Shown here piece by piece: positions 5,407 through 30,888 of a stretch of DNA of 64,000 nt (position 1 is the stretch's first letter; each line of letters begins with the position of its first letter). Made by a program: the position numbers and the translations under genes. This stretch comes from Planctomycetota bacterium. Its GTDB lineage: Bacteria; Planctomycetota; B15-G4; JADJEK01. Under the pieces are notes generated by a model. That model saw nothing but the letters and a program-made list of their open reading frames with translations, was not told the DNA's origin and ran no database searches. The DNA lies in contig JBGAIQ010000008.1 in NCBI GenBank assembly GCA_044225365.1, positions 97,575 through 161,574 of the forward strand, given 5' to 3'.

Positions 5407-5790
5407 CGCCCGGTTCACGCACGGAAGCATCGCCGACGCCGGGGCCTCGGACCGCCGTCCCGCCTTCGAATACCACCCTGGAAGCGAATCTCCTGAAGGA
5501 CTCTTGCGAACGCGCCGACTCGCCCGCACGTCGAGTTCGCACCCGTCCACGCGTTCGTTCCGAATCCGTGAGGAACGAACTCCGGCAAGTCCGTTGCCCG
5601 TCCCCGGTTCCTCCTGAGACAGGATCTCACGATTCAGAAAACTACCGCAACCTGGGACGGAGTCAAGGAACGCACCTGAGTCCGATGTCGAACCCAAGCC
5701 GGAACGTTCGGTGGCCAACGAGAGCGAGAACGCCGATACCCGCCGGATCCCGCCTCGTTCTCGGACCGAATCCCCGTATTTTGCGCAGCC

Positions 5791-11100: not shown

Positions 11101-13080
11101 TACGACTTCGACCTCGACGTCACGCCGTCGCCGTCGGCCACGCTCAACGTCACGGGCGCCGCGCCGCTCGCGATGGGTGGCCCGATCGGCGGCCCGTTCG
11201 GCGCCGTGACCGCCGGCGCGCAGAACTACACGGTCGCGAACACCGGAACCGCGACGCTCAACTGGCAAGCGAACGGCACGCCATCGTGGCTCGTCGTGAG
11301 CCCGTCGAGCGGACAGCTCCAGCCGGGCGGCTCGCAGAATGTCGTCGTCTCGGTCGCCGGATCGGGCAATGCCAATCCCGCGCTCTTCGCGGCGGGTTCG
11401 TACTCGGGACAGCTCACGTTCACGAATCTCTCGGGCGGCGGCGGTGACAGCGCAGTCACCGTCGTCCTCGCCGTCTCCTGGACGGGTGTTCCGCAACCTC
11501 TCCTGCATCCGGGAACGGGCTTCTCGGGCGCCACGCCGCAACCTCCCGCCATCGGAAGCGGCACCGGCTCCGACGCCACCGCGATCGCCCGCTGGGACGT
11601 GATCCCGTATCAGACGATGAAGTCCGATTTCGAGGTCGGCGTCGTCGCCTTCCACATCGCCGGGATCGATCGCGTCGACTTCTGCGCGAACGGTGGCGCC
11701 TGGTATTCGTCGACACAGATGTCGCTGAATCCGCGGACGAAGGTGTGGGAGTACTACGGCATCCTCCCCAGTTCCGAGTTCCCCACCGACGGGCTCGTCG
11801 AAATCCGTGCGATCGCGTATCCGGTCGTGGGCATCCCGCGCGTCCTGCCCTCGATGTACGTCTACTCGAACGTCCATGGCACGTACGCGGAAGTCGAGAA
11901 GTTCGTCTCGACCGCGGGCAACGACACCACGGGCGACGGTACGCAGAGCAAGCCGTGGCACTCGATCAACAAGGCGATCAGCGCCGTCGGGGACGGCGGC
12001 ACCATCACGATCATCGGGGCGGGCGAATATCCCGTCTCGTCGCAGAGCCAGACGCTCGTGAACTCACGGTGGCTTACGATCCGCAGCGGGGCCGGACTGA
12101 CCTCGTCCGACGTGTCGATCGTGCCCGCGAGCGGGATGACCGAGGTTCGACCGAAGGTGCATCGCGTGCGCTGGCAGGGCGTCGGATTCGACTTCTCGAA
12201 GATGTATCAGGTCTATCCCGAACCGACCGACGACATCTGGTTCGACCAAGCGCGGTTCTTCGACTCCGCCGGATGGACGCATCAGATGCTGATGCAGCCC
12301 GTGCGGTCGACGGACGCGGTCGCCGGCGTCTACGCGACGGGATCGACCGCGACGAACATGCTCTACGGGTTCATCGATTTCACGCTGGTGCGCGACTGCA
12401 CGATGAACAAGCTCTCCGGCGACGCGCTCTCCAGCACGCGGCTCGTCGTGAACACGAGCGTCACCGAACTCAGCAATCTGGTGATCCCGTCGTTCCACTC
12501 CGATCTGTGCCAGCACTTCGGAACGTGGGAGAACTTCATCATGTACGGGGTGAAGGGCACGAACCTGATCGGGATCCAATCGATCTTCGACGACCACACC
12601 TCGAGCACGTTCAAGGACTGCGCGTTCGTCAATTTCCTCGCCGACAACAATTCCGGCAACCCGCCGTTCAGTCAGCTCTGCTCGCCCCACGATCACGTCC
12701 TCTTCATCAACGTGACGCTGCTCGGGCAGCTCATGGACATGCGCGACGATCTCGCCGCTCCCGAGACCTTCACCGCGAAGAACGTGCTGTTCGAGAACTG
12801 CCTGATGTACCGCCTATCGCACAGCGCCGGGCCGGGCCTGCCGAGCGGCGTCACCGTCAAGACGAGTCACTTCATCACGGGCGAACTCCACGGCCAGAGC
12901 CCGACGAGCGGCGCGGTCACGTTCGTCAACGGCGCGGGCGGCGCGTTCGGTTACTCCGGAGCCGGCGCGAGCCAGCTCGTGGCGAGTGGTACGAGCGTCC
13001 CGAAGTTCCTCGATCCGAATCTGTGGAACGCCAGCGCGACCAAGCCGAATCGCGGCGCGTTCACCTACGATCATCCCTGA
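8158..13080 (+). CDS. Large secreted multidomain protein: M36/M4-like Zn metallopeptidase, PPC-like domain, 3 BACON-like repeats, C-terminal DUF1565/beta-helix
   Basis: Signal-like LGSLAWLALFL..SAFA; PepSY-like IVDAESGKIL; SHEYIH, EGLADFFA, EEHQNGEIF; three GPxGGPF...N-G-x-L-x-W...WL repeats; GNDTTGDGTQSKPWHSINKA. Exact start uncertain. Confidence 0.8.
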   Translation: MIDIGNPPLNTHLGPDSNRTPSISRSILGSLAWLALFLPPQSSAFAAPPMTGATPEPGVSDYVSFAAEPAPSEAIESALEFLDRESERPFHRTHSAPAVTGGTGSEGLSRLVRLHGGRWRSSHADPSAAAMEFLAKHGPLLGFDPANGWQLTPRVLRDGALVMFECSAAGVPIEGARIGVTLDGKVVTAAVSRLPQATTTALPTFRIGEATAIAAARARRASGATIPNGAMSTPDAERRFVLVQGALVPAYRVSERSADGTIAIDTIVDAESGKILATENLVLEGGPKYPYNGSLVPFKTGPAIGGVYANLGDALANKPKNVELKVEQGIPAPVNVAKGRLIGAHADVWDAGGQPVLEPGQKFIYGPFGNDADAFDQTNVFYQIEKTRNHLKHQIGSLLTPNASLPVLVNVPSATLGGSYSAATFPVDGHTAGYLTFFDASATLGPAGDSSRDPTLVSHEYIHAWLALEHQEFTGNQDDPSRAIGEGLADFFALSCQGGSVMNGYLENVSPGSGFLRDLASDQRFPYTTAAAMEFNPSHLPEEHQNGEIFGAMLLDLRRALGTAATEQLVFRALPIMPHALSDVGILAVTPDDAFTATDLFFGECARALLIASKDAKEAGAVLGAACARGLMNGTLNSQQILLELEQVPAKKFVLQSTVVAPGVVQEFLFSAIEGGVLSIKAKTASNSDLQPDVEVFAADGSNVGVATPQAKIFKKDGRSVTLNGVQLGIPGVGLYRVRVRGTGSTTGDYSLTLDLKSGSSQSQTDLVVQPLDPFVASGPAGGPFETSGGVYQIMNVGSDPIVWSLSSHPSWVVADVAGGVLNSGDFATVTLGVDPTATTGLVVGAYDSMVSFANLSAPGAPEIASLDSYLAILATPQGTLDITSPGLVQSAGPVGGPFSPSSMSFTVANNGTAPLNWKAATVATWLSLSSFGGQLDPGQSVNVSASLVTSGPNAAGLLPIGSYTGTIDFTNLSNGIGDASYDFDLDVTPSPSATLNVTGAAPLAMGGPIGGPFGAVTAGAQNYTVANTGTATLNWQANGTPSWLVVSPSSGQLQPGGSQNVVVSVAGSGNANPALFAAGSYSGQLTFTNLSGGGGDSAVTVVLAVSWTGVPQPLLHPGTGFSGATPQPPAIGSGTGSDATAIARWDVIPYQTMKSDFEVGVVAFHIAGIDRVDFCANGGAWYSSTQMSLNPRTKVWEYYGILPSSEFPTDGLVEIRAIAYPVVGIPRVLPSMYVYSNVHGTYAEVEKFVSTAGNDTTGDGTQSKPWHSINKAISAVGDGGTITIIGAGEYPVSSQSQTLVNSRWLTIRSGAGLTSSDVSIVPASGMTEVRPKVHRVRWQGVGFDFSKMYQVYPEPTDDIWFDQARFFDSAGWTHQMLMQPVRSTDAVAGVYATGSTATNMLYGFIDFTLVRDCTMNKLSGDALSSTRLVVNTSVTELSNLVIPSFHSDLCQHFGTWENFIMYGVKGTNLIGIQSIFDDHTSSTFKDCAFVNFLADNNSGNPPFSQLCSPHDHVLFINVTLLGQLMDMRDDLAAPETFTAKNVLFENCLMYRLSHSAGPGLPSGVTVKTSHFITGELHGQSPTSGAVTFVNGAGGAFGYSGAGASQLVASGTSVPKFLDPNLWNASATKPNRGAFTYDHP
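10441..11480 (+). repeat. Three tandem ~110-aa BACON-like protein repeats
   Basis: SGPAGGPF/AGPVGGPF/GGPIGGPF; each followed by a W..WV/WL segment, G-L-(N/D/Q)-(S/P)-G and Y...F-(A/T)-NLS. Confidence 0.75.
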
Positions 13081-13092
13081 TCGATCGCCACC

Positions 13093-14529
13093 TCAGACGC
13101 GGCGGAGCGACTCGAACGTGCGCCAGGGACGCCAACCGAACGCGGCGACCGAGAGTCCGAAGATCACGAGGATGAACGCCACGCCGAGTGCGACCTTCTC
13201 CTGCCACGGCGCACCCGAGAACCAGTTCGCTCGCACGAACGCGACGACGCCGACGATGACTCCGAGTCCGAGGAGCGGCCGCGCCGTGTAGGCGATGGGC
13301 AGATTCTGCTTCACCTTCAGGCGGGCGATGTCGACGACGAGTGCGACCGACTCACCCACCATCGACGCGACGACGACGAAGTACATCGGCGCCCCGCGCA
13401 TCGCGGCGAAGAGCGCCGGGATCATGAGGGAGATGCGGAACAGGTTCGCGATCAGCACCTGGCGCGTGTCCCCCTTCGCGAAAGCCGCGTGCGTCGTCGT
13501 CGAGCGCATGAGTCGCACGGCGTGCATCACCGCGATGACACCGACCACCGTCACGCTCTGACTGAATTGCGGACCGTACGCGACGCGCACGAGGAAATCC
13601 CCGAAGCACAAGAAGCCCACCGCGAAGGAACAGGCCACGGGGAAGAGCACCTGCATCGAGCGCCGGTACCGCATCCCATAGTCCTTGTCGAGGTCCTGCA
13701 CGTCGGACAGGATCGGGAGGACGAGTTGTCGGTTGATGAGATTCGTCGTCGCCGCCATCGCTGCCGTGATGCCGACGGCCGCGGAGAAGAGTCCGAGGTC
13801 GTGCACGTCGTAGTACTTGCCGATCAGCAACTGATCGCCGTACTGGATCCCGAACAACAGCAATCCGTTGGCGAGCAATGGCCAGCCGAAGTGCATCAGG
13901 CGCTGTGTCATCGCCTTGTCGAAGCGCCAGCGATAGGGACGCTCCGCCAGCCAGTGCGACGCGATCAGGTTGATCACGGCCTTCAGGATCGTGAGGGACA
14001 GGAGTGCGCGATAGTCATCGAAGTACTTCGCCGCAGGCCAGGCGCAGGCGAGCAATGCGAGATCGGTCGCGAGGTCGAACGTGACGCGCGGCGCGAAGCG
14101 CATCGATCGCTGATACCGCGTGAGGTCGGTATGCATGAACCCGCGGACGATCGGGATGAGCGCAAGCATGCGGAACGAATCGACGATGTGCGGAGAGTTG
14201 AAGATGCTCGCAACGAGCGGAGCCGCGAGGAAGACGAGCACCGCGAGGACGATTCCGCGGATCGCGAGGATTCCGTGGAGCGACGCCTGCATCTCCGGCT
14301 CGTCGCCGTCCTTGGCCTGAACGAGCAGCGTTTCCGGCGAGAGGCTCGTCGTGAGATCGAAGAAGTACTCCGTCACCGCGAACATCGCGCCGACGCCGAA
14401 ATCGGCGGGCTTCAACAGGCGCGCGACGATGCCGTTGCGCAGCAGGCCGAGGAAGCGGCTGCCCGCCTGCCCCGCGCCCAGCACGAGCGTTCCCTTCACG
14501 ATTCGACGACCGAGCTTCGCCCCACTCAC
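13093..14529 (-). CDS. wzx: Oligosaccharide flippase (Wzx/PST family)
   Basis: ARLLKPADFG, FGWPL, DQLLIGKY, LGLFS; polytopic membrane protein. Confidence 0.9.
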   Translation of the reverse strand: MSGAKLGRRIVKGTLVLGAGQAGSRFLGLLRNGIVARLLKPADFGVGAMFAVTEYFFDLTTSLSPETLLVQAKDGDEPEMQASLHGILAIRGIVLAVLVFLAAPLVASIFNSPHIVDSFRMLALIPIVRGFMHTDLTRYQRSMRFAPRVTFDLATDLALLACAWPAAKYFDDYRALLSLTILKAVINLIASHWLAERPYRWRFDKAMTQRLMHFGWPLLANGLLLFGIQYGDQLLIGKYYDVHDLGLFSAAVGITAAMAATTNLINRQLVLPILSDVQDLDKDYGMRYRRSMQVLFPVACSFAVGFLCFGDFLVRVAYGPQFSQSVTVVGVIAVMHAVRLMRSTTTHAAFAKGDTRQVLIANLFRISLMIPALFAAMRGAPMYFVVVASMVGESVALVVDIARLKVKQNLPIAYTARPLLGLGVIVGVVAFVRANWFSGAPWQEKVALGVAFILVIFGLSVAAFGWRPWRTFESLRRV

Positions 14530-15683: not shown

Positions 15684-17573
15684 TCAACGATCGCGGCGCG
15701 GGCGTCCGTGTTCGTGCTTCACGAAGTACCCGATCCCGTTCAACAGCTCCTCGACTTGAACCGGCATCGCCTCGTCCGAGTCGTTCGCCTTGAATCGCGG
15801 CAGTGATTCGATCGCCTTCCTCAGGCGTGCGACGATCTCGGGATGGGCATCCTTCACATCCGTGCCCTCGGCGTGGTCGTTCACGACGTCGTAGAGGCGC
15901 AGCACCCCCTTCGACGATTCGAGCAGCTTCCAGCGGCCGTCGCACGCCGTCATCCAATCCCCATCGAAGGGCGATGGATCGAACTCGGGATAGTGCTCCT
16001 TGAACAGGTCGAGATAACGCTGTTGATGCCGCATCTGAGCGAACACGAGATCGTCGTCCTGCAGCTCGAGCGCGGGATGATGAGCCCGCGCCCCGCTGTC
16101 GAGGCCGGCGAGATCCGCGATCGTCTCGTAGATGCCATTGGTCTCGACGTTCTTGCTCACGTGCCCCGGAGTGAAACCCGGCAGGTAGCGCACGATCATC
16201 GGCACGCGAAGCAGACACTCGTCGAGTCCGAGCTGGTGACCGAGCAAGCCTCGTTCGCCGAGGCGCTCGCCGTGATCCGCGGTGACGAGGATGGCGCTCT
16301 TGTCGAGCTCGCCGCGATCCTTCAGCCACTCGAAGAACGCGCCGAGGGACCGATCCATCGTGTGCAGGTCGGCGTCGTAGCGAGCGATGACTCGGTCGAG
16401 CGCCGCGCCCTCGGCCTTCAGGTGCCCCGAATCGTAGTCCTCGGAGAAGAACGAGATGTCGGGCGCGGTCCTCGTCTTCTCGTCGAAGAACAACGAGGGC
16501 TCGCTGTCTCCGTACGGCGCGTGAGGATCCATGAGATTCACCATCACGAAGCGCGGCTTCTCCGAGTGCGTGATCCACCAACGCTCGACCCACTCGAGAG
16601 TCGTCGGCGTATCACCTCGCCATCGCCACTCGGCCTCGGCACGACGCGCGCCGGCGAAGAGTGCCGCGATCGAGAAGAGCGGCCGGATCCAAGTCTGGCG
16701 GTACATCTGGTACCCCCGCGCCCAGCCGAGCGATTCCGCGAGATGGGGATTGTTCACGGCGCCGAACGTCGCGTACCCGCCATTGCGCAATCGCTCCGCG
16801 ATCGTCTCGCCCGACGTCGAGAGCGCCCCGTTCTCGATTCCGTGCTCGGCCGGGAGCATTCCCATGAAGATCGACGCATGGGCCGGCACCGTCCACGGCG
16901 CGGCGGACCACGCCCGGTCGTAGATCCGAGCGTCCTCCGCGAAGCGATCGAGGTTCGGCGTCGTCGGCCGAAAGTAGCCGTTCATCGACAGATGGTCGAA
17001 GCGCGTCGTATCGAGGATCAAGAGAACGATGTCGGGAGTACCTTTGCCCCGCAGGCGATTCGAACGAGACGATACGCCATCGCTCGGCCACTGCTTGCTC
17101 CCCGCGTAGTAGACGAGTCCGAGCAGGGCGAGCCCGCAGCCGAGTCCGAAACGGCGCGACGGCAGCAACCGGATCCCGAGCCATTGCGTGAACGCGATCA
17201 CCCCGCAGCCCACCGCGATCGACAACAACGCGATCAGTCCCGCGAGCGAGAGCTCACCGCGACTCGGCGCGAACCACAACATCGTGTGCACCGTGGCGAT
17301 GAACCCGAAATCGAGCGCAGCGGCAAGGGCGATCCGTTCGATCGGACTGCGGCGACGACGCACGATGAGCGCGACGAGGGCCGCGAGAAGGATGATGAAG
17401 CCACAAGCCAGCGCTTCGTTTGGGGAGACGAAGAAGAGCGGATCGATCGCGAACACCAAGGACAGTTCGAGAGCGAACGGCAACGTGGCGGCCGCGAGGA
17501 CGGCGATCCCGAGGACGAGTGTGCGGAAGCGGGTCGACGGGCGAGGATCGCTCGGCATCGTGTTCGAGTCCAT
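15684..17573 (-). CDS. Membrane-anchored sulfatase-like hydrolase/transferase (alkaline phosphatase superfamily)
   Basis: N-terminal TM block; LILDTTRFDH, SAAPWTVPAHAS, NLMDPHAPY, TADHGE, GH, VPMIVR. Confidence 0.85.
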   Translation of the reverse strand: MDSNTMPSDPRPSTRFRTLVLGIAVLAAATLPFALELSLVFAIDPLFFVSPNEALACGFIILLAALVALIVRRRRSPIERIALAAALDFGFIATVHTMLWFAPSRGELSLAGLIALLSIAVGCGVIAFTQWLGIRLLPSRRFGLGCGLALLGLVYYAGSKQWPSDGVSSRSNRLRGKGTPDIVLLILDTTRFDHLSMNGYFRPTTPNLDRFAEDARIYDRAWSAAPWTVPAHASIFMGMLPAEHGIENGALSTSGETIAERLRNGGYATFGAVNNPHLAESLGWARGYQMYRQTWIRPLFSIAALFAGARRAEAEWRWRGDTPTTLEWVERWWITHSEKPRFVMVNLMDPHAPYGDSEPSLFFDEKTRTAPDISFFSEDYDSGHLKAEGAALDRVIARYDADLHTMDRSLGAFFEWLKDRGELDKSAILVTADHGERLGERGLLGHQLGLDECLLRVPMIVRYLPGFTPGHVSKNVETNGIYETIADLAGLDSGARAHHPALELQDDDLVFAQMRHQQRYLDLFKEHYPEFDPSPFDGDWMTACDGRWKLLESSKGVLRLYDVVNDHAEGTDVKDAHPEIVARLRKAIESLPRFKANDSDEAMPVQVEELLNGIGYFVKHEHGRPRRDR

Positions 17574-17984
17574 GCGTTCGGTCAAGTCACGAGACTTCTG
17601 CCCTCGACGAGGCCCCATCGCCTTCCATCTTCGGATCCGAACTCGATTCGTCCCCCAATACGAAGCAAGACGACTCTCGGTCCTATCGGTCAGGAGGATA
17701 CGCGAGAATACCCGCGATGCCATTGCTCGGCCCGATCGATTTCCTGGGTGCCGGGTTCAGAAACGCGAAGCGGTCCTCCGAAGAGTGAGGAGCGGGTGTC
17801 GCATCGGCCCCGCGATCTCCGAACGGAATCCGATCGAATGAATGCCGGACGGCTTTTCGACCGAGACGCTAGATTCACTTTGGATCCGTCGAATCGTCGT
17901 CGCGGCCTCCGGCCGTGTGAAGAGCATGAGTCCAGCAGGAAGCGAGTTCGTGAAGTCCATGAATTCCATGAGTCGAGAGTTTTC

Positions 17985-18713
17985 ATGATCGCGTTTGGCG
18001 TCACGACTCGCGCGATCCGGTACGGCGGGATCTTGGCCCTACTCGTCATCGCATTCGCGGCGAGTGGTTGCTCCACGGGGAAGCCGATCGCTGAGATCGC
18101 AGAGGAGATCGGCAAGACCTATCACCCGGAGACGAACGTCCTCGTCCCTGGCGACATCCTCGACATCAAGTTCAAGTTGCCCGATTGGAATCACCAGACG
18201 CGCGTTCGTCCGGACGGCATGGCTTCGTTCCTCGGCATCGCCGATCTTCCGGCCGCCGGCCGCACCGTCGAGATGTTGGCGAAGACGTTGAACGAGAGAT
18301 ACTCCGGTCTCCTCGCCGAACCCACGGTGAGCGTGCTGCTCACGACGCTCGCCACCCGCGAGGTCATCGTGATGGGAGAGGTCCAGAAACCGGGCGCGAT
18401 CCCCGTCGATCGGGGGCGTCTCACGCTGATCGAGGCGATCGGTCGCGCGGGCGGGCCCGTCGCTTCGACCAACCTGCTCGAGAACACTCTGCTCGTCCGA
18501 TGGGATCCGAAGGAGCAGCGTCAGGTAGCATGGCTCATCGACGCCAGCCCCGAACAATGGACTTCGGAAGCGCCGATCTATCTCCAACCTTTCGACGTCG
18601 TGTGGGTCCCCAACAAGCGCATCGTTCAGGTGGACATCTGGGTCGAGCAGCACATCACGCGGCTCATCCCGATCCCTGGCGGTGCTCCGATCTCCCCCGC
18701 AACGGGTCGCTGA
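17985..18713 (+). CDS. wza: Polysaccharide export lipoprotein (Wza/Poly_export + SLBB)
   Basis: Lipobox AASGC; LVPGDIL, VRPDG, VMGEVQKPG, LIEAIGRAGG, LQPFDVVWVP. Confidence 0.88.
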   Translation: MIAFGVTTRAIRYGGILALLVIAFAASGCSTGKPIAEIAEEIGKTYHPETNVLVPGDILDIKFKLPDWNHQTRVRPDGMASFLGIADLPAAGRTVEMLAKTLNERYSGLLAEPTVSVLLTTLATREVIVMGEVQKPGAIPVDRGRLTLIEAIGRAGGPVASTNLLENTLLVRWDPKEQRQVAWLIDASPEQWTSEAPIYLQPFDVVWVPNKRIVQVDIWVEQHITRLIPIPGGAPISPATGR

Positions 18714-18720
18714 GGGCATC

Positions 18721-20436
18721 GTGAACTCGACCAACTGGCACTACGAGGAATTGCGACGACAACACGCGGCGGCGCTCCTCGGCCCCGTCTCCGAACCGCA
18801 GGACGATGGCGACGATCGCACTCCGACCCTCTCCGAGTTCGTCGACATCGGGGCGAAGCGTTCCCGCGCGGTGATCGGGGCCATGTTCCTGGTCGGCACG
18901 CTCGGCGGCGTCTTCGTCTCGTTGATCCAACCGAACAAGTTCATCTCGACCGGACAATTCATGGTCCGTTCCGGCGCACGCGAGCAGTCGACGCCCGAGA
19001 GCACGGTCGACACGCAGTTCGCGACGCGTGGAAACTTCGGCGGCGGCGCCGACGAGGTGCATCTGCTCTCCGACCCGGAGATCTGCAGACGAGTCGCGCA
19101 GGAGGTCGGACCCGAGAACATCCTGCAGCCCTACGATCCCGCGAGCGAGGATACCGAGCAGACGAACGGCTTCCTGCGCTTCATCCATCGCTTCCAATCG
19201 ACCTGGTTCAAGTCGCTCTCGCCGGTCTCCGACGAGGACAAGAAGACTCATTCGCCCGCGGCGATCGAAGCCGCGATGACGCTGATCCAGAACAATCTCA
19301 CACTGGACTGCGAACGCAATTCGAACGTAGTCGTGGTCGGTTACGCGACGCACTCGCCTGCGCTCGCGCAGCGCGTCGTTTCCGCCTTCCTCCGCGCCGG
19401 ACAGATCCGCCACAGCGAGGTCTACGCACCCGGACGGCAATTGAGCCTCGTCTCCGAGCAAGCACAGCAGGCCGCGACGCAGTACGAGGCTGCGGCGTCG
19501 ACGTTCGAAGCCGCCAAGGCCGAGTGCGGGTTCTACGACATCACGGTGCAGAAGAAGGACCTCATCACTCGCATCGCGCTCCACGAGGCGCAGCTCAAGG
19601 ACGACGAGACTCATCTGAAGTCCCTCGATTCCCAGATCCAGTTCATCACCGATGAGATCGGCAAGACGCCGCAGACGGTCGCGACGACCCTGCCGCTGCA
19701 GCCGATGCCGAACCCGAAGTACACCGAACTGACTTCCAGCATCGCGAAGCTCAACGACGAGCTCGGCAAGCTCGGCGACGTCTACTCCCCCAACTCCGCT
19801 GAGTACAAGCGTCGCGACAAGGACCTGCGCGACCGACTCGGCAAGCTCGAGACGGAGCGCAATGCGACGCCGTTCCAGATCACGACGGAGTCGACCGCCG
19901 TCACGTCGATCCAAAATCCCGTCTACGAAGACCTCGTCAAACGCCGCATCGAGATCGAGCAGCAGCGCCGCGGACTCGCCGAATCCATTCGAGCGAATCG
20001 CGGGAGCTTGAAGGAGGAGAACGCAACGTTGGAGAAGCTCCTGCTCTGCGAGCCGTCGCACCTCAAGATGGCGCAGGACGTCGAGTACCTCGCGCAACAG
20101 TTGAAGCGCCTCACCACCGCTCGCGACAACACCGAAGTGCTGAACCTCGTGAATCGCGATGCAACGATGAGCAACCTGCTCGTGCTCCAAGAAGCCACTC
20201 TGCCGGCCGAGAAAGCGGGACCGGTCCGCGCCAAGATCGTCGGCGTCGGGATCGCGCTCGGATTGTTCCTCGGGCTCGGGATCGCCATGCTCCGCTTCAT
20301 GCTCGACACCAAACTGCGCAGCCGCGAGCGCGCCGAGCGCCTGCTCGGCCTCCACGTGCTCGCGGTCGTCCCCGAGTCGGCTTCCTGGAAGCGCCGCGGG
20401 ATGACACTCCTGCCCCCGAGTGGAGCCGTGCGATGA
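18721..20436 (+). CDS. Polysaccharide co-polymerase / chain-length determinant (Wzc N-domain, GumC-like)
   Basis: Two TM segments flanking a long coiled coil; YSPNS; C-terminal LDTKLRS...LGLHVLAVVP. Confidence 0.88.
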   Translation: MNSTNWHYEELRRQHAAALLGPVSEPQDDGDDRTPTLSEFVDIGAKRSRAVIGAMFLVGTLGGVFVSLIQPNKFISTGQFMVRSGAREQSTPESTVDTQFATRGNFGGGADEVHLLSDPEICRRVAQEVGPENILQPYDPASEDTEQTNGFLRFIHRFQSTWFKSLSPVSDEDKKTHSPAAIEAAMTLIQNNLTLDCERNSNVVVVGYATHSPALAQRVVSAFLRAGQIRHSEVYAPGRQLSLVSEQAQQAATQYEAAASTFEAAKAECGFYDITVQKKDLITRIALHEAQLKDDETHLKSLDSQIQFITDEIGKTPQTVATTLPLQPMPNPKYTELTSSIAKLNDELGKLGDVYSPNSAEYKRRDKDLRDRLGKLETERNATPFQITTESTAVTSIQNPVYEDLVKRRIEIEQQRRGLAESIRANRGSLKEENATLEKLLLCEPSHLKMAQDVEYLAQQLKRLTTARDNTEVLNLVNRDATMSNLLVLQEATLPAEKAGPVRAKIVGVGIALGLFLGLGIAMLRFMLDTKLRSRERAERLLGLHVLAVVPESASWKRRGMTLLPPSGAVR

Positions 20437-21113
20437 CGGCCCGCAACGCATTGCCCGTCGCGTCCCCCATCGCCGAGTCGCTGCTCGCCGCCAACGAGTC
20501 GCTGTCCGGACTCTGGGCGAGCATCGTGCGTCCGATCGAGCCAGGGAAGAATACGCGCGTCATCGTGATCGCCGCCGATCCCGGAGAAGGCGCGACGACC
20601 GTCGCGGTCTGCATCGCGATGGGACTCTCCGAGCATCTGCAAGGCCGCGTCGCGCTGGTCGAGACGAACGTCCAACGACCGGGCCTCGCTACGTATCTCG
20701 GAGTCCCGGCCACGCCGGGATACGCCGAAGTCGCAGCCGGCGAGATCGCGCTCGAGAAAGCGCTGCGCCATCCGCTCGGACCCGAGTTGTCGATACTGCC
20801 CGCAGGTGCCCTACCGACTCCGCATCCAGGGAAGGGAAACGCCCTCGCCGCGCGGGCCGGATCCGAACTCGGCGAACAGATGTTCCGCAAGCTCGCCGAG
20901 GACCATCGCTACATCGTGATCGACGCGCCGCCGATCCTGCATTGTCCCGAGGCTTCGTGCCTCTTCCCGCACGCCGACCAGGTCGTTCTCGTCGCTGACG
21001 CGCGGAACACCGACAAGAAGCGCACCGAACGCGCCGCACGCCTCATCCAGCAGCTCGGTGGCGCGCTCTCCGGCGTCATCCTCAATCGCGGCTACGAGGG
21101 CGGCGACGACTGA
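20433..21113 (+). CDS. CpsD/CapB-family tyrosine kinase-like ATPase (degenerate)
   Basis: PGEGATT, LVETNVQRP, IVIDAPP, GVILN; coupled to the co-polymerase (ATGA overlap). Confidence 0.85.
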   Translation: MTARNALPVASPIAESLLAANESLSGLWASIVRPIEPGKNTRVIVIAADPGEGATTVAVCIAMGLSEHLQGRVALVETNVQRPGLATYLGVPATPGYAEVAAGEIALEKALRHPLGPELSILPAGALPTPHPGKGNALAARAGSELGEQMFRKLAEDHRYIVIDAPPILHCPEASCLFPHADQVVLVADARNTDKKRTERAARLIQQLGGALSGVILNRGYEGGDD

Positions 21114-22411
21114 CGCCGCGGCTCGAAGCGTTCGACGCGAATCCGTTTCAGCAGGCCGCGCGTGAACACCCGCTTCAGCGTGCCGTAGATCGACTGCGCC
21201 TTCTCCTTCGGCGTCAACACCCGCCACCACGACGAGAACAGCGAGAAACCGCGATAGCGAGGCGCAGCCGCGAACAGGGCGCGACTCGCGAGGACTCGAC
21301 CGAAGATCGTGGCTCGCGTGCGCAGCATGTTCGGTTGCGAGCGCAGTAGGATCTCGGGCCCGACCTTCTCGAGAACGAGATGACCGGATTCGACGGCGGC
21401 GGCGAGGATTCGTCGACCCCGCTCGGTCCGCGCGAGCACGAGGGACCGCCCCGGCTCACCGTCGCGCAGCGTGCGATACCACGGATCCCCGACGGCGATG
21501 TCGGCGAATTCTCCACTGTGATCGACGCACACGTGGCACCGCCACGGCCGGTGCTTCTGTAGGACGTCACCCCACGACTTCTCGTACGTCATCTCCGCCG
21601 TGCGCATCCCCCCACCGGATGCATCATCGCGAAACGATGCGCTCGCCATCCCCGGCCAGCCACGGCCGCGATAGCGCAGGGATGTGACGGACTCCGGATC
21701 CTTCACTCCCATCTGCCGCAGCATCTCGAACGTCCCTTGCAGCGAAGGCGTTCCGGCGCAGAAGAACGCGACCGTGAAGCCGATCTTGCGATCGAGCTCG
21801 GGACGCAATCGTCGCGCATTCTCCGTCGCCGCAATGTCGCACGGCTTTCCGATCACGGCGCAAGGCCCCATCGCGTTCTCGACCAGCGCGAGGCCGTCGC
21901 AAGGACTCGCCGGCGCGTAGCGCGACCCGGTGGCGGCGAGGATCTCGGCGCGGGTGGTGCTGAGCTGGGTGCGGTTCAGATACCTCACGTCATCGCGCGC
22001 GGCGATCTGCAGCACCCCATGCATTCCCCCACGTTCGAGCCCGAACAGCGCGAGCGCACTGGCGGCGCCGCCGCTCGACCCGAGGAAACGAAGCTCTTCG
22101 TCGCCGGCATAGCCCTCGTACAGCTCGTACACGGTTCCCCAGTCCCCGAGCAGTTCCTTCGCGACATCGTCCCTCTGCTCCGGCTCTCGCGCCACGAGTC
22201 CGACTCCCGGGCAGGCTTCGAGCGCATCGCGGAGCGACGAATCGGCGACCCGATCCATCGAGCGGTCGTGCGGCAGCGGAATCTCGACCGGTCGCCTCCC
22301 GTGAGCGAGGTCGTCGACCATCTCGATGCGCTGGGGCGCGAGGTAGGCACAAACACCGCAACCGCTGCACAGTTGCCGCGCGACGACGTCGAAGATCGAT
22401 TTCTCGCTCAA
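21092..22411 (-). CDS. Coenzyme F420 hydrogenase/dehydrogenase beta-subunit family Fe-S flavoprotein
   Basis: CSGCGVC, ACPG, SSGG, GSRY, GKPC, FFCAG, YRGRGWPG, CHVCVD, DIAVGDPW. Confidence 0.9.
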   Translation of the reverse strand: MSEKSIFDVVARQLCSGCGVCAYLAPQRIEMVDDLAHGRRPVEIPLPHDRSMDRVADSSLRDALEACPGVGLVAREPEQRDDVAKELLGDWGTVYELYEGYAGDEELRFLGSSGGAASALALFGLERGGMHGVLQIAARDDVRYLNRTQLSTTRAEILAATGSRYAPASPCDGLALVENAMGPCAVIGKPCDIAATENARRLRPELDRKIGFTVAFFCAGTPSLQGTFEMLRQMGVKDPESVTSLRYRGRGWPGMASASFRDDASGGGMRTAEMTYEKSWGDVLQKHRPWRCHVCVDHSGEFADIAVGDPWYRTLRDGEPGRSLVLARTERGRRILAAAVESGHLVLEKVGPEILLRSQPNMLRTRATIFGRVLASRALFAAAPRYRGFSLFSSWWRVLTPKEKAQSIYGTLKRVFTRGLLKRIRVERFEPRRQSSPPS

Positions 22412-22754
22412 GTCGTGGATCCGATCGTTTCATGGTTGCGGGAATCGGCCCGGTGGAAGGAGCCGCGACTCCGCGCCCCAAGTCCGACGCCCCGAAAGTC
22501 CCGACTCTCGACACGTCGGAGGATCGGGGATTCGCCACCGCGTAACAAGAGATCGGACATATTCAAGCGTCATCTGTTGGTGGCGGGCAATCCCGCCGAA
22601 AGTCGTTTGCATCCTTGCACTCCACGTGGTCAACTTCAACCCGAGTTGTTTGGGTCTCCTGCGGTCAGTCCTCGATCGCCACCTCGACGCCCCGCCAAGG
22701 CATCGAGTTTCGAGGACGGAGTCGGAGACACGTCTCGCCGAGGACGTGATTCAC

Positions 22755-24140
22755 ATGTCTTTGAAAGCATGGTTCCAACCGAAGCGTTGGTTCGCTTCGT
22801 TGTTCTCCCACGTTCCGAGCGATCTCCCCGGGATCTCCTCGGCGAGTGAGTTCGAGACGCTCTTCCGTCGCGAGGTCGCGCGCAGCGACCGCAACGGACG
22901 ACCGCTCTCGCTCGTCGTGCTGATCCCGACCGAAGAGACCGCTCGCAACCTGCCGCGACTCGCGAAGACGCTCGCGGCGCGCGTGCGGATCACCGACTGC
23001 ATGGGATTCCTCGACTCGCAGCGACTCGCGGTCCTGCTCACCGAGACCGAGGGTTCCGCGGCCTGGCGCTTCGCCGACGACGTCCTGTCGATCACGAGTC
23101 GCCTCGGTCTCGGAGTGAATTGCGCGGTCTACAGCTATCCGCAGGACTGGCTCGGCATCCAGCACGACGGGACCCGCCGTGGCAACGGCGCGTTGCACGA
23201 GGGGAGCCCGCTCACGCGCAGCTCGCCCCCGCTGCGCTCGCAAGACGATCACGGCGATGATTCCGACGGCAACGACTTCGTCGACCGCCCGAATCACGCT
23301 CCCGCGCCCGACCACCGGGACGGGCAGGACGACGACGACGCGAGCGAGTCGCGCCCGCGCCGCGAAGCGAATCGGGAAGGCGGGATCGCGCTCGCAGAAC
23401 GCCGCGTCGCCACCCGTCGCACTCCCGTCGTCGCGAAGGTTCGATCCCTCCCGACGAAAGAGGGTCGCTCACTGCTCGCCTTGCCGCGGCAGCACGTCGA
23501 AGGCTTGCCGATCCAGGATCTCGCGCAGCTCCTGGTGCGCCCCATCCCGCTGTGGAAGCGCGCGATGGACGTTCTCGTCTCGGCCACGCTCCTGATCCTG
23601 CTCCTGCCGCTGTTCGCCTTGATCGCGATCGCCATCAAGCTCGACAGCACGGGGCCGGTCATCTTCGCGCAGCAGCGCGCGGGCCGCGGTGGCCGACCGT
23701 TCAAGTTCTACAAGTTCCGGTCGATGCGTGTCACGGCCGAGAGCGAACGCGCCATGTTGCTCGCCGCGAACGAGCAGGACGGCCCGGTCTTCAAGATCCG
23801 CAACGACCCTCGCATCACGCGCGTCGGTCGCTGGATCCGCAAGACCAGCCTCGATGAATTGCCCCAGCTCTTCAACGTCCTGAAGGGCGACATGACGCTC
23901 GTCGGTCCGCGCCCACCCACGCTGGACGAACTGCCTTCGTACGAGAATTGGCAGCGGCGCCGTCTCGACGTCATCGGTGGCATCACCTGCTCCTGGCAGG
24001 TGAGCGGCCGCAACGAGATCGGATTCTCCGACTGGGTCCGGATGGACCTCCGCTACGCGCGCCGCACGAGCCTCGCGGAGGATCTCTCCCTTCTCGCTCG
24101 AACGGTCGTCGCCGTCGGTACGATGCGGGGCGCGTACTGA
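22755..24140 (+). CDS. Priming sugar (phosphoglycosyl) transferase with N-terminal degenerate GGDEF-like domain
   Basis: C-terminal KRAMD..YKFRSM..DPRITRVG..SLDELPQ..LVGPRP; N-terminal RREVARSDRNGRPLSLVVL...RVRITD..G.L....AVLLTET. Confidence 0.9.
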   Translation: MSLKAWFQPKRWFASLFSHVPSDLPGISSASEFETLFRREVARSDRNGRPLSLVVLIPTEETARNLPRLAKTLAARVRITDCMGFLDSQRLAVLLTETEGSAAWRFADDVLSITSRLGLGVNCAVYSYPQDWLGIQHDGTRRGNGALHEGSPLTRSSPPLRSQDDHGDDSDGNDFVDRPNHAPAPDHRDGQDDDDASESRPRREANREGGIALAERRVATRRTPVVAKVRSLPTKEGRSLLALPRQHVEGLPIQDLAQLLVRPIPLWKRAMDVLVSATLLILLLPLFALIAIAIKLDSTGPVIFAQQRAGRGGRPFKFYKFRSMRVTAESERAMLLAANEQDGPVFKIRNDPRITRVGRWIRKTSLDELPQLFNVLKGDMTLVGPRPPTLDELPSYENWQRRRLDVIGGITCSWQVSGRNEIGFSDWVRMDLRYARRTSLAEDLSLLARTVVAVGTMRGAY

Positions 24141-24148
24141 AGGGCGGA

Positions 24149-24185
24149 AGCCGGACGGGAGCTCTCCCATCTCCTGGGAGCTTCG
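24149..24185 (+). terminator. Possible hairpin downstream of the sugar transferase
   Basis: Imperfect stem gagctctccca-tctcc-tgggagcttc just after the stop; no U-tract. Confidence 0.25.
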
Positions 24186-24219
24186 TGACGGTCGCCGCCG
24201 GATTCGACGCGCCGGCCGT

Positions 24220-24234: not shown

Positions 24235-24303
24235 CGGTCATAAAGTCAACGGACGTAACGATCCGAAGGTATCGGGTTCCGACCTCGCGCCCGACGCGAA
24301 CCG

Positions 24304-25674
24304 ATGCAAGAGAACTCCGCGCCCTATCTGGTTTCGTTCCAGGATCAGACGACCGTGCATCCGGTCGGACTGCTGGCGCTCGTCGTTTGCTGCGCGTCGA
24401 TCCTGTTCCTGCCGCGGCGGACCGCCATCGTTCCGATCCTCGTCCTCCTGTGCTTCATCCCGAGCGCACAGCGCGTCGTGATCCTCGGACTCGACTTCAC
24501 GTTCACCCGCATCGCCATCGTCGCCGGGTTCATGCGGATCCTCATGAAGAGCGAGTACGGCAAGCTGCGCTGGCGGGCACCGGACACGATCCTCGTCGTG
24601 TGGGCGATCGTCGAGTCGATCGCGTACGTCTCCCTGCATGGCGACTTCTCGTCGTTCATCTTCATCTCCGGTCAGATGTTCGACGCGCTCGGAAGCTACT
24701 TCCTGTTCCGCACTCTCGTCCGCGGCCTGCCCGATGTCATGCTCGTCGCCCGAGCGTTCGCGCTGCTCGCGATCCCGGTCGCCCTGCTCTTCCTCATCGA
24801 GAAGGCCACGGGTCGTAATCTGTTCGGGATCTTCGGCGGCGTGCCGTTCCTGACGATGGTTCGCGAAGGCCGCCTCCGATGCCAAGGTGCATTCCCCCAT
24901 CCGATCCTCGCCGGTACGTTCTGGGCGAGCGTCCTGCCCCTCATCGGCGCGCTCTACTTCTCGAAACGCACGCGGCGCCTCGCGCTCGTGGGGACGGCGA
25001 GCGGTCTCCTCATCATCTTCCTGTGCGCGTCGTCGACGCCCATCGGCACGACCGCGCTCGCCGTGTTCGGGGCCTGCATCGTGCCCTGGAGACGCTTCCT
25101 GCCGTTGATGCGCGTCGGCGCAGTCGTGATGCTGTGCGGTCTCCACGCCGTGATGAAGCAGCCTGTCTGGCATCTCCTCTCGCGCATCGATCTCACGGGC
25201 GGATCCGATGGCTACCATCGATTCCTGCTCGTCGATCGCGCGATCGCGTTCTTCTCGGAGTGGGCTGCGAACGGCACCCTCGACACCGCCCACTGGGGTT
25301 GGGGCCTCGAGGACGTGACCAATCAGTACGTATTGGAAGGCGTCCGCGGCGGCGCGCTGACCCTCGCACTCTTCATCACGATGCTCGTCATGTGTTTCTC
25401 GCGGGTCGGAAGGACATCGCGCGCGCTGGTCGGTGACAAGCCCGCCTTCGCGATGGCCTGGGCCCTCGGACTCGCGCTCATGGTCCACGCCGCGAATTTC
25501 GTCGCCGTCTCCTACTTCGGTCAGGTCACCGTGGGCTGGTACCTGACGCTCGCGCTCATCGTGAGTCTGCACCAGAGCCTCTCGACGCATCGAGCGGCGA
25601 TCCCCACTGCGATGCCGAGGCCCACGACCGAACCGTTGCCGCGCGCACCGGCCGGAGGTCGGCTTGCACACTGA
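24304..25674 (+). CDS. O-antigen ligase/polymerase-like membrane protein (Wzy)
   Basis: Polytopic; RCQGAFPHPILAG, HR..L, DVTNQY periplasmic-loop motifs; locus context. Confidence 0.8.
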   Translation: MQENSAPYLVSFQDQTTVHPVGLLALVVCCASILFLPRRTAIVPILVLLCFIPSAQRVVILGLDFTFTRIAIVAGFMRILMKSEYGKLRWRAPDTILVVWAIVESIAYVSLHGDFSSFIFISGQMFDALGSYFLFRTLVRGLPDVMLVARAFALLAIPVALLFLIEKATGRNLFGIFGGVPFLTMVREGRLRCQGAFPHPILAGTFWASVLPLIGALYFSKRTRRLALVGTASGLLIIFLCASSTPIGTTALAVFGACIVPWRRFLPLMRVGAVVMLCGLHAVMKQPVWHLLSRIDLTGGSDGYHRFLLVDRAIAFFSEWAANGTLDTAHWGWGLEDVTNQYVLEGVRGGALTLALFITMLVMCFSRVGRTSRALVGDKPAFAMAWALGLALMVHAANFVAVSYFGQVTVGWYLTLALIVSLHQSLSTHRAAIPTAMPRPTTEPLPRAPAGGRLAH

Positions 25675-26665
25675 GCCGCCGGCCGCGGAATCGGGGAGGA
25701 CCGCCGTTGCGTTGTCGATCCTCGTCATCAGTTACAACACTCGCGATCTCACCATCGAGTGCCTCCGGTCGGTCTACGCCGAGACGAGAGCGACTGCATT
25801 CGAGGTGATCTGCGTCGACAACGACTCGCGCGATGGATCCGCAGCTGCGATCCGCAACGAATTCCCGGACGTTCATCTCCTCGCACTTTCGCACAACGAA
25901 GGCTTCGCCGCGGCGAACAACCGGGCAGCGCGCGTCGCCCGTGGCGAGTGGCTCCTCCTGCTCAATCCCGACACCCTCGTCCTCGATCGCGCGATCGATC
26001 GGCTCGTCGCGTTCGCCGAGGCGAATCCCGGTCATTCGATCTTCGGGGGCCGGACGCTGTTCGGAGATCGGACCCTCGATCCCACGTCCTGCTGGGCGCG
26101 ACCGACGCCATGGAGCCTGTTCTGTCGCGGCACCGGACTCGCATCGGTATTCCGCCACACTCGATGGTTCGATCCCGAGTCCTACGGTGGATGGAAGCGC
26201 GATTCCGTTCGCGAGGTCGACATCGTCACGGGCTGCTTCCTGCTGATCCGTCGCGGGGTTTGGAACGATCTCGACGGATTCGATCCCCAGTTCTTCATGT
26301 ATGCCGAGGAAGCCGATCTCTGCCTACGAGCACGGCACCGCGGACTTCGAGCATTGCTCTGCCCGGATGCGACGATCGTCCACTACGGCGGCCGATCGGA
26401 GACGGTCGTCGCGGACAAGACCGTTCGCCTCCTGCGTGCCCAACATCAGCTACTGCGTCGCCATTGGACGGCATCGTCGTATCGATTCGGCCGCGCGATG
26501 TTGACGATGTGGGTCGCGACGCGTCGCCTCTTCTGGAGCCTCGTTCCCGGCAGCAAGAGCACTCCTCGCGCCGCGATGTACCGCGAGGTCCTCGCCCGTC
26601 GCTCGGAGTGGAGCCTGCCACCCGAGATGCCGGGCACTGCGCTCACGGAACCGGTGAAGCGATGA
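25664..26665 (+). CDS. GT2 glycosyltransferase
   Basis: ISYNT, VDNDSRDGS, GFAAANN, LLNPD, FFMYAEEADLC. Confidence 0.93.
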   Translation: MHTEPPAAESGRTAVALSILVISYNTRDLTIECLRSVYAETRATAFEVICVDNDSRDGSAAAIRNEFPDVHLLALSHNEGFAAANNRAARVARGEWLLLLNPDTLVLDRAIDRLVAFAEANPGHSIFGGRTLFGDRTLDPTSCWARPTPWSLFCRGTGLASVFRHTRWFDPESYGGWKRDSVREVDIVTGCFLLIRRGVWNDLDGFDPQFFMYAEEADLCLRARHRGLRALLCPDATIVHYGGRSETVVADKTVRLLRAQHQLLRRHWTASSYRFGRAMLTMWVATRRLFWSLVPGSKSTPRAAMYREVLARRSEWSLPPEMPGTALTEPVKR

Positions 26666-27834
26666 GCGAGGCGCGCACTTTCGACGGCATCCTGTGCTTC
26701 GGCGGCCTCGATTGGTGGTACCACAATCGCGGCCATTTCGACATGCAGATGATGCGCGAACTCAGTGCGCACGTTCCCGTCGTGTACATCAACTCGATCG
26801 CGATGCGGATCCCGAAGGTGACCGAAGGCGCGATGTTCTTGAAGCGGATCCAGCGCAAGTGGAAGAGCCTACGTCGCGGTCTCGTCCGCATCGACGATCG
26901 ATTCGCGGTGTTCACTCCGTTCGCGATCCCCGGGCGCGTGGGAACGGCGATGTCGCGGCTCGTCGTTCCGCATCAGGTGAAGCGCGCCGGCAAGGCTCTC
27001 GGGATGCAGCGCCCGCTCGTCTGGGTCGCGGTGCCGCCGGCCGCGCGATTCCTCGATGCTCTGAAACCGAACGGGCTGATCTACCAGCGCACGGATCGGT
27101 TCGAGGCCTTCTCCGGCGTCGATCGACCCTTCATCGAATCGTGCGACCGCACATTGAAGACGCGGGCCGACATCACGATCTTCTGTGCACACGAATTGCT
27201 CGATACCGAAGAGGCGCAATGTCGGAAAGCCGTCTTCGTGGATCACGGCGTCGACTACGAGAGATTCGCACGCGCTGGCGACACGGACGCGGCGTTGCCG
27301 CCCGACATGGCTTCGATCCCCTACCCACGCGTCGGGTTCGTCGGCGGAATCGACTCGCACACCTTCGACCCTCCGTTGTTCCTCGAGGTCGCGAGGCGAT
27401 TGCCGGACGTGCAGTTCTTCCTCGTCGGTGCCTGCTCGCTTCCCGAGAATTGGTGCCCACTCCCGAACGTGCGGCTCCTCGGACAACGCCCCTTCGAACA
27501 GGTCGCCGCGTACATGGCCGCAGCCGACGTGCTGATCATGCCGTGGAACAAGAGCGAGTGGATCCGCGCCTGCAATCCGGTGAAGCTGAAGGAGTACCTC
27601 GCGGTCGGCCGCCCGATCGTGACCTCTCCATTCCGCGAACTCGAGAACTACGAGGGGCTCGTCCACATCGCGACGGATGCGCCATCGTTCGCCGCAGGGA
27701 TCGAGCAGTGCCTTGGAGAACCCTTCGATCGCAGGCCCGGTCGACGCCGCGTCCAGGGCGAGACCTGGACGGCGAAGGCGACCGACGTGTTGTCCGCCCT
27801 CGAACGTGCCGGCTGGCGCGCGGCGCCGCACTGA
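26662..27834 (+). CDS. GT4-like glycosyltransferase (TuaH-like)
   Basis: DHGVDY, GFVGGI, ADVLIMPW, NPVKLKEYLAVGRPIV; ATGA overlap. Confidence 0.9.
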   Translation: MSEARTFDGILCFGGLDWWYHNRGHFDMQMMRELSAHVPVVYINSIAMRIPKVTEGAMFLKRIQRKWKSLRRGLVRIDDRFAVFTPFAIPGRVGTAMSRLVVPHQVKRAGKALGMQRPLVWVAVPPAARFLDALKPNGLIYQRTDRFEAFSGVDRPFIESCDRTLKTRADITIFCAHELLDTEEAQCRKAVFVDHGVDYERFARAGDTDAALPPDMASIPYPRVGFVGGIDSHTFDPPLFLEVARRLPDVQFFLVGACSLPENWCPLPNVRLLGQRPFEQVAAYMAAADVLIMPWNKSEWIRACNPVKLKEYLAVGRPIVTSPFRELENYEGLVHIATDAPSFAAGIEQCLGEPFDRRPGRRRVQGETWTAKATDVLSALERAGWRAAPH

Positions 27835-29598: not shown

Positions 29599-30888
29599 TC
29601 ACCTCGCACGGGCTCCAGAGCAGATTTCGGCGAATTGAGCCTCGAGAGTCGAGCGCATTCTCGGCAATGCGATGGCGAGCTTTGCGGCCACCTCGTCCCG
29701 CTCGGCGAGGCTCGACCGCACCCTCTCGACGATTCCCTGCGCAGTTTCCGTGCGCGGATCCACGACGCTTGCTCCGACTCCCGCGGTGGCGAATACGCCG
29801 CGCGTCTTGTCGCTGTAAGCGAGCCCGAGGGTGGGCACGGCCGAAGACAGACCCGCGATGCACGAGTGCATGCGCGTACCGCAGAACCAGGAGCACCTCG
29901 ACACCATCCACTTCGCATGATCGGGACGACCCGTGAAGGGCGCGATCAGGACGCGCGACCGTTGCATCGGCGAGAGAGCATCGAACAAGGCGCGGCACGC
30001 CAGTGCGTCGTCCTCGGCGGGACGGTCGTCCGGCACGACGTGCGGCAGCAGCAAGACCCGATGGGATTCATCGCGGAGCAACGCATCGAGCAACGACCGC
30101 ATGAGCGCTCGATACTCCGATTGGAAACCGAACTGCTCCCGCTCGCGGCCCGCGAGTTGGAACAGCAGACCGCTCACGTTCAGTCCGAGGCAGATGCCCC
30201 GGCTCGCGAACGCTTCGATCGGTTCGGCAACCTCCGCGGGCGGAGGAGTCGAGGGCAGGCCGAACGCGACGTCGACGCCGAGCCGGCAGCGCTTCGAATC
30301 GAAGTCCGAGCCCAGGAGGTCGCGCACGATCTCTAGGCTCTCGGCGTCACGCGCCCACGCCTGCGTCGCGCTCGCGATCAACTCTCTCGCCTCGATCCGC
30401 GTGCGCTCCCCGCGGAACGGGCCGTAGGTCTGCGGCAGCAGGATCAGAGGCTTTCGCATGTCGAGCGCGATCCGCTTCGAGAGCGTCACGGCCTTGAAGC
30501 GCCAATCCCCGTAGATGTCGGAGAAGCTGTCACCTCCAGAGATGTCCAGGACGGCGTCGAGTCCCTCGATTGCTCGCAGGAACGGATGCGAGTTCGTGAG
30601 ACCGAGGCGGGCGAAGAAACGCGCAGAGTCCATGTTGCCGGGTCGATAGAACCGTCGCGAATGCTCGCAGGGAAGGAGACGGATCGGTGTGTCCGCGTAC
30701 CCGTCGACGAGATCCTGCGTTCGCTGCGTCTTCTTGAACAGGCCGAGCGTGAAGTCGATCGGCACTCCGACGCTCGCAAGCCCGCGAATGGAACCGAGTG
30801 CGAGCGCGGAGACTCCGAGGTTCCCGGTGTCCGGAGGACAGCCGAAGATCCCGAGTGCGAGACGACGGTTCTCAGCGGACGAATTCAT
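29599..30888 (-). CDS. Polysaccharide pyruvyl transferase family protein
   Basis: GNLGVSAL, GGDSFSDIYG, PQTYGPF, ARD..S, DVAF, GTRMHSCIA, AYSDK. Confidence 0.92.
   Translation of the reverse strand: MNSSAENRRLALGIFGCPPDTGNLGVSALALGSIRGLASVGVPIDFTLGLFKKTQRTQDLVDGYADTPIRLLPCEHSRRFYRPGNMDSARFFARLGLTNSHPFLRAIEGLDAVLDISGGDSFSDIYGDWRFKAVTLSKRIALDMRKPLILLPQTYGPFRGERTRIEARELIASATQAWARDAESLEIVRDLLGSDFDSKRCRLGVDVAFGLPSTPPPAEVAEPIEAFASRGICLGLNVSGLLFQLAGREREQFGFQSEYRALMRSLLDALLRDESHRVLLLPHVVPDDRPAEDDALACRALFDALSPMQRSRVLIAPFTGRPDHAKWMVSRCSWFCGTRMHSCIAGLSSAVPTLGLAYSDKTRGVFATAGVGASVVDPRTETAQGIVERVRSSLAERDEVAAKLAIALPRMRSTLEAQFAEICSGARAR

Follow-up and report, generated by a model that had tools for sequence, protein, structure and literature searches.

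The gene at 22755-24140 on the forward strand of the window (the whole stretch of DNA analysed, 64,000 nucleotides from a Planctomycetota bacterium) is a single open reading frame of 461 amino acids (P0001) that joins a degenerate GGDEF domain to a monotopic phosphoglycosyl transferase (PGT). Sequence comparison indicates that this domain is a real, family-wide feature of the degenerate-GGDEF effector kind and not a member of the PelD family. Binding of c-di-GMP by the domain is probable from the residues that it keeps, and the fuller reading, in which binding also gates priming in a Wzx/Wzy pathway, is on balance favoured by sequence and structure models taken together. The parts of the gene are as follows.

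22755..22826 (+): basic/aromatic N-terminal leader (aa 1-24), of low model confidence
22827..23153 (+): degenerate GGDEF domain (aa 25-133), from structure matches and family-profile alignments
22872..22892 (+): E40-x2-R43-x2-R46 helix, R46 aligned with DgcR R163
22986..22997 (+): primary I-site RxxD (R78-I-T-D81), from alignments to solved cyclases
23013..23027 (+): position of the lost GG(D/E)EF loop (DSQRL), from alignments to solved cyclases
23079..23081 (+): D109, at the position of PleD R390, DgcR R237 and the third arginine of PelD (R78+31, as R206+31=R237 in DgcR)
23154..23504 (+): disordered linker (about aa 134-250), acidic then basic, from pLDDT and its variable length across the family
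23505..23540 (+): short strand and helix (aa 251-262), modelled as packing onto the GGDEF-like domain (pLDDT 92)
23541..24137 (+): monotopic PGT catalytic core with re-entrant helix, from PF02397 and structure matches to WbaP and PglC

Architecture of the fusion protein

The start at 22755 is favoured over an alternative in-frame GTG at 22626, because a GAGGA lies 10 nt before the ATG and because of the leader lengths of homologs; no sigma-70 promoter was found in 22300-24400. The leader has a net positive charge in 74 of 81 homologs. A membrane-binding amphipathic helix in this leader is unsupported, helix scores rising above those of shuffled sequences in only 5 of the 81.

The C-terminal part matches PF02397 (Bac_transf) at aa 268-454 (E 1.9e-63, 213.6 bits against a cut-off of 27), and in the full-length model its core aligns with WbaP (8t53, Z 20.5) and PglC (Z 19.3). 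The PGT motifs KRxxD (268-272), DELPQ (367) and GPRP (R386) are intact and the Asp-Glu dyad is present. Family membership is established by these matches, and from it we infer that undecaprenyl phosphate receives its first sugar-1-phosphate through this core. The model of the large monoPGTs WbaP and WcaJ (TIGR03025) gives 282.7 bits, below its cut-off of 295.55, and covers only aa 227-461. The only hydrophobic stretch of the protein is 266-304; a hydropathy scan reveals no N-terminal hydrophobic segment, and the four-helix membrane bundle and the DUF of large monoPGTs are absent. These features place the protein within the monotopic PGT superfamily and outside its large-monoPGT class.

A first-pass annotation, made from the sequence letters, had described a long acidic linker between the two parts. 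Its length stands (121 aa, against a family median of 59 aa, n=118), while acidity is confined to 160-200 (14 D/E, 4 K/R), the whole being net neutral with 22 D/E and 19 K/R. Net acidic linkers occur in 80 of 118 family members. In the full-length model pLDDT is below 50 across most of 135-247 and 92 at aa 251-260, where the strand that precedes the PGT packs back onto the GGDEF domain, which argues against a domain loosely tethered by an acidic linker. All 47 GGDEF structure-match rows of this model reach residues 254-262; read as ranges, 21 of them pair that end with the last residues of the matched chain and 26 with its middle, and since ranges give first and last residues only, the safe claim is that segment 251-262 packs on the GGDEF-like domain. 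A V253/L256/L259 pattern is visible in the family alignment. By the offset of the TIGR03025 profile, the fold-back strand lies near the end of the domain-swap hairpin of WbaP, a hairpin described as swapping between protomers (PMC10942596).

A GGDEF fold without its active site

The GGDEF models of Pfam and NCBIfam give zero matches to the whole protein and to aa 1-137. The earlier annotation had recognized a GGDEF pattern in the N-terminal ~130 aa and had proposed structure prediction as a check, which gave the GGDEF fold. With a single-sequence model of aa 1-137 (pLDDT 64.7), Foldseek retrieves only GGDEF-domain proteins among the matches listed, and in a VIA-align comparison with 48,161 chains ranks 1-31 are all GGDEF domains, the best at Z 12.8 (rmsd 2.7, 113 aligned) and the first non-GGDEF fold at Z 8.8. 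The full-length model, built from a 72-row alignment, reaches pLDDT 94-97 over aa 31-130 and GGDEF matches up to Z 14.6. Compared with solved cyclases, the family profile matches 3ign at E 1.1e-13 and WspR at E 4.2e-9 (E 1.5e-9 with an earlier family profile), and a protein-language-model search returns unnamed clusters at 0.97 and GGDEF-labelled clusters at 0.95-0.96. The GGDEF fold of the N-terminal domain is confirmed at the level of models and profiles.

The GG(D/E)EF loop is lost, as first proposed: DSQRL stands in its place, the sequence motifs originally quoted are present, and GG[DE]EF occurs in 0 of 273 family domain rows. Alignments to 3ign, GcbC, DgcR and WspR also place a deletion of about 9-10 residues in the GTP/metal-binding segment (DxDxFKxxNDxxGH). 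As the fold is that of a GGDEF domain and the active-site residues are gone, comparison with active diguanylate cyclases shows a domain predicted to be catalytically dead. Loss of the P-loop and helix is likewise described for the c-di-GMP binders BcsE and PelD (PMC7439463).

A predicted I-site of the cross-linking type

The assignment of RITD to the I-site position is borne out, R78-x-x-D81 lying exactly five residues before the GG(D/E)EF position in alignments to the same four cyclases. R46, on the first helix, equals DgcR R163 by alignment (chain offset 20, verified on R206, D209 and K179), and DgcR R163 is reported to cross-link dimeric c-di-GMP from the second subunit (PMC8041772). R115 of the T. 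maritima DGC matches DgcR R163 in its spacing to RxxD, 43 residues (PMC4215984). Both sequence hallmarks of a cross-linking-type I-site, a primary RxxD and a secondary first-helix arginine, are thus found in the domain. R43 matches PleD R313 by spacing, on what we take to be the numbering of PleD R359.

Conservation of RxxD, which had been suggested as a check, was assessed in pooled homologs reduced to 143 domains below 50% identity, and the motif is kept in 141 of them. Residue by residue, D81 is kept in 143, R78, E40 and G84 in 141 each, R46 in 140, R76 in 127 and R43 in 125, and 138 domains have both RxxD and R46. The third with the lowest identity (19-29%) keeps R78 in 46 and D81 in 47 of 47 domains. 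Retention of seven other query arginines (R38, R49, R64, R68, R90, R105, R116) is lower, at only 17-60 of 143 domains. Among cyclases, RxxD is reported in 57% and the second arginine in 64% of those (PMC4215984), so that about 36% of ordinary cyclases would hold the full set, against 138/143 here; this contrast is strong and carries no formal test, and the counts are not independent, since all homologs were retrieved with a motif-bearing query and are mutually related.

The label 'PelD-type' given at first pass does not hold. PelD of B. cereus is described as requiring a third arginine for binding (R395; R402 in P. aeruginosa; bioRxiv 768473), and this residue is D109 in the fusion protein; over 142 domains the position is Asp in 64, Glu in 13 and Arg in 10. 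Because the third arginine required by PelD is an aspartate, the I-site rather resembles a cross-linking site between two domains, of the kind seen in DgcR, which is reported to bind c-di-GMP without a contribution of R237, the equivalent of PleD R390 (PMC8041772). PelD membership is further contradicted by a domain that starts at about residue 25 without a GAF and by a locus of the Wzx/Wza/PCP type, not pel.

A family centred on Planctomycetota

The GGDEF-like domain is present in 118 of the 120 best full-length homologs, query included (P0014 and P0025 are without it). A domain-only search of 1.84 billion representatives yields 693 proteins at E <=0.001; the 150 listed of these comprise 49 with a full PGT, 20 with a partial PGT, 76 short proteins without PGT and 5 others, and include two spurious matches (P0200, P0206). 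Ten of 77 short matches extend into the beginning of a PGT, which makes them look truncated. A word-based search with aa 1-140 finds only the query and one near copy, a limit of sensitivity in view of the 693 proteins. Pfam matches only 9 of 72 family members, with E up to 0.01 (PelD_GGDEF 1/72, E 0.006), so most members would be missed by Pfam-based architecture lists.

A tree of the PGT core with 105 rows gathers 29 of the 32 domain-bearing rows in one branch (bootstrap 91, SH-aLRT 98); the other three, all tandem-domain forms, lie outside it. The tree shows stable coupling of the GGDEF-like domain to one PGT lineage. Tandem PGTs with two or three copies of the domain (P0115, P0122, P0125, P0136, P0141, P0184) keep RxxD in every copy save one of P0184, and such copies could cross-link c-di-GMP within one chain. 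An apparent split form occurs at L010:9875-11149, where the GGDEF-like gene ends at 10426 and a small PGT starts in frame at 10433, an arrangement that an assembly error might produce; this PGT sits within the main domain-bearing branch. Single examples show the domain in other arrangements: P0210 has it twice, fused to a WecG/TagA glycosyltransferase, in P0191 it lies between REC and PilZ, and in P0166 it follows an N-terminal kinase-like domain.

At least 7 of 80 GTDB loci carry the domain, 6 from Planctomycetota and 1 from Hydrogenedentota (L010, as adjacent genes), a sample fetched with PGT-derived patterns that matched at least 601 stretches and not the range of the family. Three Atlas clusters, with 485, 124 and 76 members, are found most often in Planctomycetota; one of 54 members bears the automatic name sugar transferase/GGDEF, so the pairing is already visible in automatic annotation. 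The plasmid sequences searched hold no match to the family. On these searches, the family is mostly from Planctomycetota and usually missed by Pfam.

A probable Wzx/Wzy-type locus

By Pfam and NCBIfam the gene lies in a locus with Wzx, Wza, a polysaccharide co-polymerase (PCP), a BY-kinase-like protein, several glycosyltransferases, a deacetylase, a sulfatase and a pyruvyl transferase.

2618..5542 (-): 975-aa protein with polysaccharide deacetylase, DUF3473 and GT2 domain (profile search)
8158..13080 (+): 1640-aa protein with BACON and Ig-like repeats, adjoining the flippase (profile search)
13093..14529 (-): Wzx flippase (PF13440 E 4e-52; NF007773)
15684..17723 (-): membrane-anchored sulfatase-family protein inside the locus (NCBIfam)
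18111..18713 (+): Wza/OPX export protein (PF02563, SLBB)
18682..20436 (+): PCP (TIGR03007 E 3e-25, below its cut-off)
20433..21113 (+): BY-kinase-like protein without Walker A lysine (GEGATT) or tyrosine cluster (TIGR03018 E 3.8e-24)
21092..22411 (-): FrhB/FdhB-like iron-sulfur protein, located between kinase-like gene and PGT and divergent from the latter (PF04432, PF04422)
24304..25674 (+): polytopic membrane protein directly downstream of the PGT, putative Wzy (9 hydrophobic segments, position)
25664..27834 (+): GT2- and GT4-type glycosyltransferases in the same direction (Pfam)
29599..30888 (-): pyruvyl transferase (Pfam)

The sulfatase suggests a modified polymer, and the 1640-aa protein may be a surface protein tied to the polysaccharide. 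The Wzy-dependent pathway first proposed stands as regards its Wzx, Wza, PCP and BY-kinase-like genes and falls short at the polymerase: 24304-25674 is matched by no Pfam or NCBIfam family and not by BLAST to a Wzy_C protein of L004. Two of the 7 related loci have Wzy_C genes after the PGT, and export, chain-length or kinase-like genes stand beside it in 6 of the 7. A Wzx/Wzy-type context is supported by this gene content. The seventh, L017, is an orphan: no polysaccharide cluster surrounds its family member (L017:6177-7391), which is flanked by a Ser/Thr kinase and mnmA. No GGDEF, EAL or PilZ gene occurs among the heuristically chosen ORFs of the window or the 86 ORFs around the seven related loci.

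A proposed c-di-GMP gate on priming and its alternatives

In the proposed mechanism the fusion protein would act as a one-component c-di-GMP effector enzyme. Intercalated dimeric c-di-GMP would bridge R78/D81 of one domain and, on a second copy, R46 or R43, as in DgcR and the T. maritima DGC; this two-domain cross-link is drawn from residue mapping and conservation. The GGDEF domain would replace the membrane bundle and DUF that dimerize large PGTs such as WbaP, and the modelled fold-back strand would tie it to the catalytic core. For both reasons, cross-linking by the ligand may determine how the PGT is oriented or which oligomeric state it adopts, and so gate the entry of Und-P into the pathway. 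The priming step is a logical gate because it commits undecaprenyl phosphate, which is shared with peptidoglycan synthesis, and precedents for regulating PGTs at this first step are described (PMC12802240). Small monoPGTs are reported to work as monomers (PMC12802240), so dimerization need not change activity. Activation at high c-di-GMP is clearly the likelier sign than inhibition, by analogy with biofilm polysaccharides and with EpsZ, for which activation through dimerization has been proposed.

The same genes can be read in another way, in which c-di-GMP is bound and the output is assembly or localization, the domain docking the PGT on a complex of BY pseudokinase and PCP. The product of 20433..21113 is a probable pseudokinase from its sequence, and genes that lack both the Walker A lysine and the tyrosine cluster recur in related loci:

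L001:9208-9894, L004:8810-9451, L010:9134-9838, L042:8519-9175, L059:1805-2476: Walker A lysine- and tyrosine-cluster-less genes

The kinase-like gene lies directly upstream of the PGT in 5 of 7 related loci and one gene away in the window, a kinase-like domain is fused in P0166, and the GGDEF domain of BcsE is reported to bind the ParA-like BcsQ and c-di-GMP by separate surfaces (PMC7439463). The Walker A lysine is missing from the BY-kinase-like genes of 6/6 family loci against 7/18 others (Fisher p 0.016), a comparison in which the kinase profile was built from family members and the loci are related. Against docking, L003 and L017 have no kinase-like gene near the PGT, and pseudokinases also occur in pathways without the domain, as in the 7/18 and in the case of EcpK (PMC12802240). 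Docking as the output is an unlikely reading.

Improbable as well is a ligand-free structural module, a unit of constitutive dimerization or folding that replaces the DUF, with the charged residues as internal salt bridges. E40, R43, R46, R78 and D81 are ancestral GGDEF residues that a structural salt-bridge network could hold in place; G84, L95 and T98 are about as conserved as these five. The acidic residues in place of the third I-site arginine fit such a module, as does a pre-PGT strand that packs on the domain near the hairpin end. YfiN is reported to keep RxxD yet to show no binding of c-di-GMP, and is without the second arginine that this family has (PMC3838380), so RxxD is necessary but not sufficient. 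By the 57% figure, 43% of cyclases would fold without a complete RxxD (PMC4215984), yet the motif is kept in 141/143 domains here and the second-site arginine is kept alongside it, and the REC and PilZ fusion, a single example, points to signalling.

Very improbable is an arginine-rich pocket repurposed for UDP-sugar, UMP, GTP, (p)ppGpp or cyclic GMP-AMP as metabolic feedback: family-specific residues flank the I-site (of about 143 domains, R39 in 112, R76 in 127, W104 in 86, Y128-P129 in 124/128) and nucleotide sensing has been proposed for the WbaP DUF (PMC10942596), but the GTP-binding segment is deleted and the residues kept are those of a c-di-GMP I-site.

The c-di-GMP gate, taken in its most specific form, describes a Planctomycetota-centred family of priming transferases in which c-di-GMP cross-links a built-in dead GGDEF domain and switches the first committed Wzx/Wzy step, a tentative proposal given a little less than an even chance. 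As a direct second-messenger gate on a PGT it would be without precedent in the literature searched, and it would possibly replace tyrosine-kinase control, the catalytic lysine being lost from the BY kinases next door.

The full-text literature searched, the scope of which leaves outside the O'Toole 2021 survey and most subscription papers, yielded no account of a fusion between GGDEF and PGT. O'Toole et al. 2021 are said to have surveyed the regulatory-domain fusions of small monoPGTs. Surface polysaccharides of Planctomycetota are little studied. Direct control by c-di-GMP is well known for synthase-dependent systems (PMC12802240, with which PMC12220298 agrees), and post-translational control of Wzx/Wzy pathways is described in 2025 as incompletely understood (PMC12802240). 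The PGT controls that this paper lists as known are phosphorylation and a response regulator, and the term 'GGDEF' is absent from the text searched. The family would offer a single-polypeptide test of this gap, with sensor and enzyme in one protein of 350-460 aa, named residues, a small soluble domain, and natural split and tandem variants. If the proposal is true, it adds a c-di-GMP receptor family mostly missed by Pfam.

Comparison with known systems

The fusion domain shares with PelD of P. aeruginosa and B. cereus a dead GGDEF domain with an intact RxxD, the loss of P-loop and helix, and a polysaccharide locus, and the two superpose at Z 9.4 (4dmz, rmsd 3.3, 107 aligned). PelD is a separate receptor in a synthase-dependent system, whereas the fusion domain is joined to a catalytic enzyme and is nearer to active cyclases than to PelD in both sequence and fold. 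BcsE also has a degenerate GGDEF domain (Z 8.0-8.2) that binds c-di-GMP at RxxD and a ParA-like ATPase through a different surface (PMC7439463); it differs in serving synthase-dependent enterobacterial cellulose, in being non-catalytic, in its REC-like partner domain and in having no PGT.

DgcR, the T. maritima DGC, WspR and PleD have a primary RxxD and a first-helix arginine at equal spacing. These are active enzymes inhibited by the cross-link, whereas the active site of the fusion domain is gone, so that any effect of a cross-link would need to fall on the fused transferase.

On the transferase side, WbaP and EpsZ (with EpsW) have the same PGT core and exhibit post-translational control of priming through an accessory domain and dimerization (PMC10942596, PMC12802240), and receiver-domain fusions of the PGT core are cited as well (PMC12802240). 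The fusion protein differs from WbaP and EpsZ in having neither four-helix bundle nor DUF, and from EpsZ in the nature of the signal, which is a phosphorylated response regulator acting in trans for EpsZ and a proposed second messenger acting in cis here.
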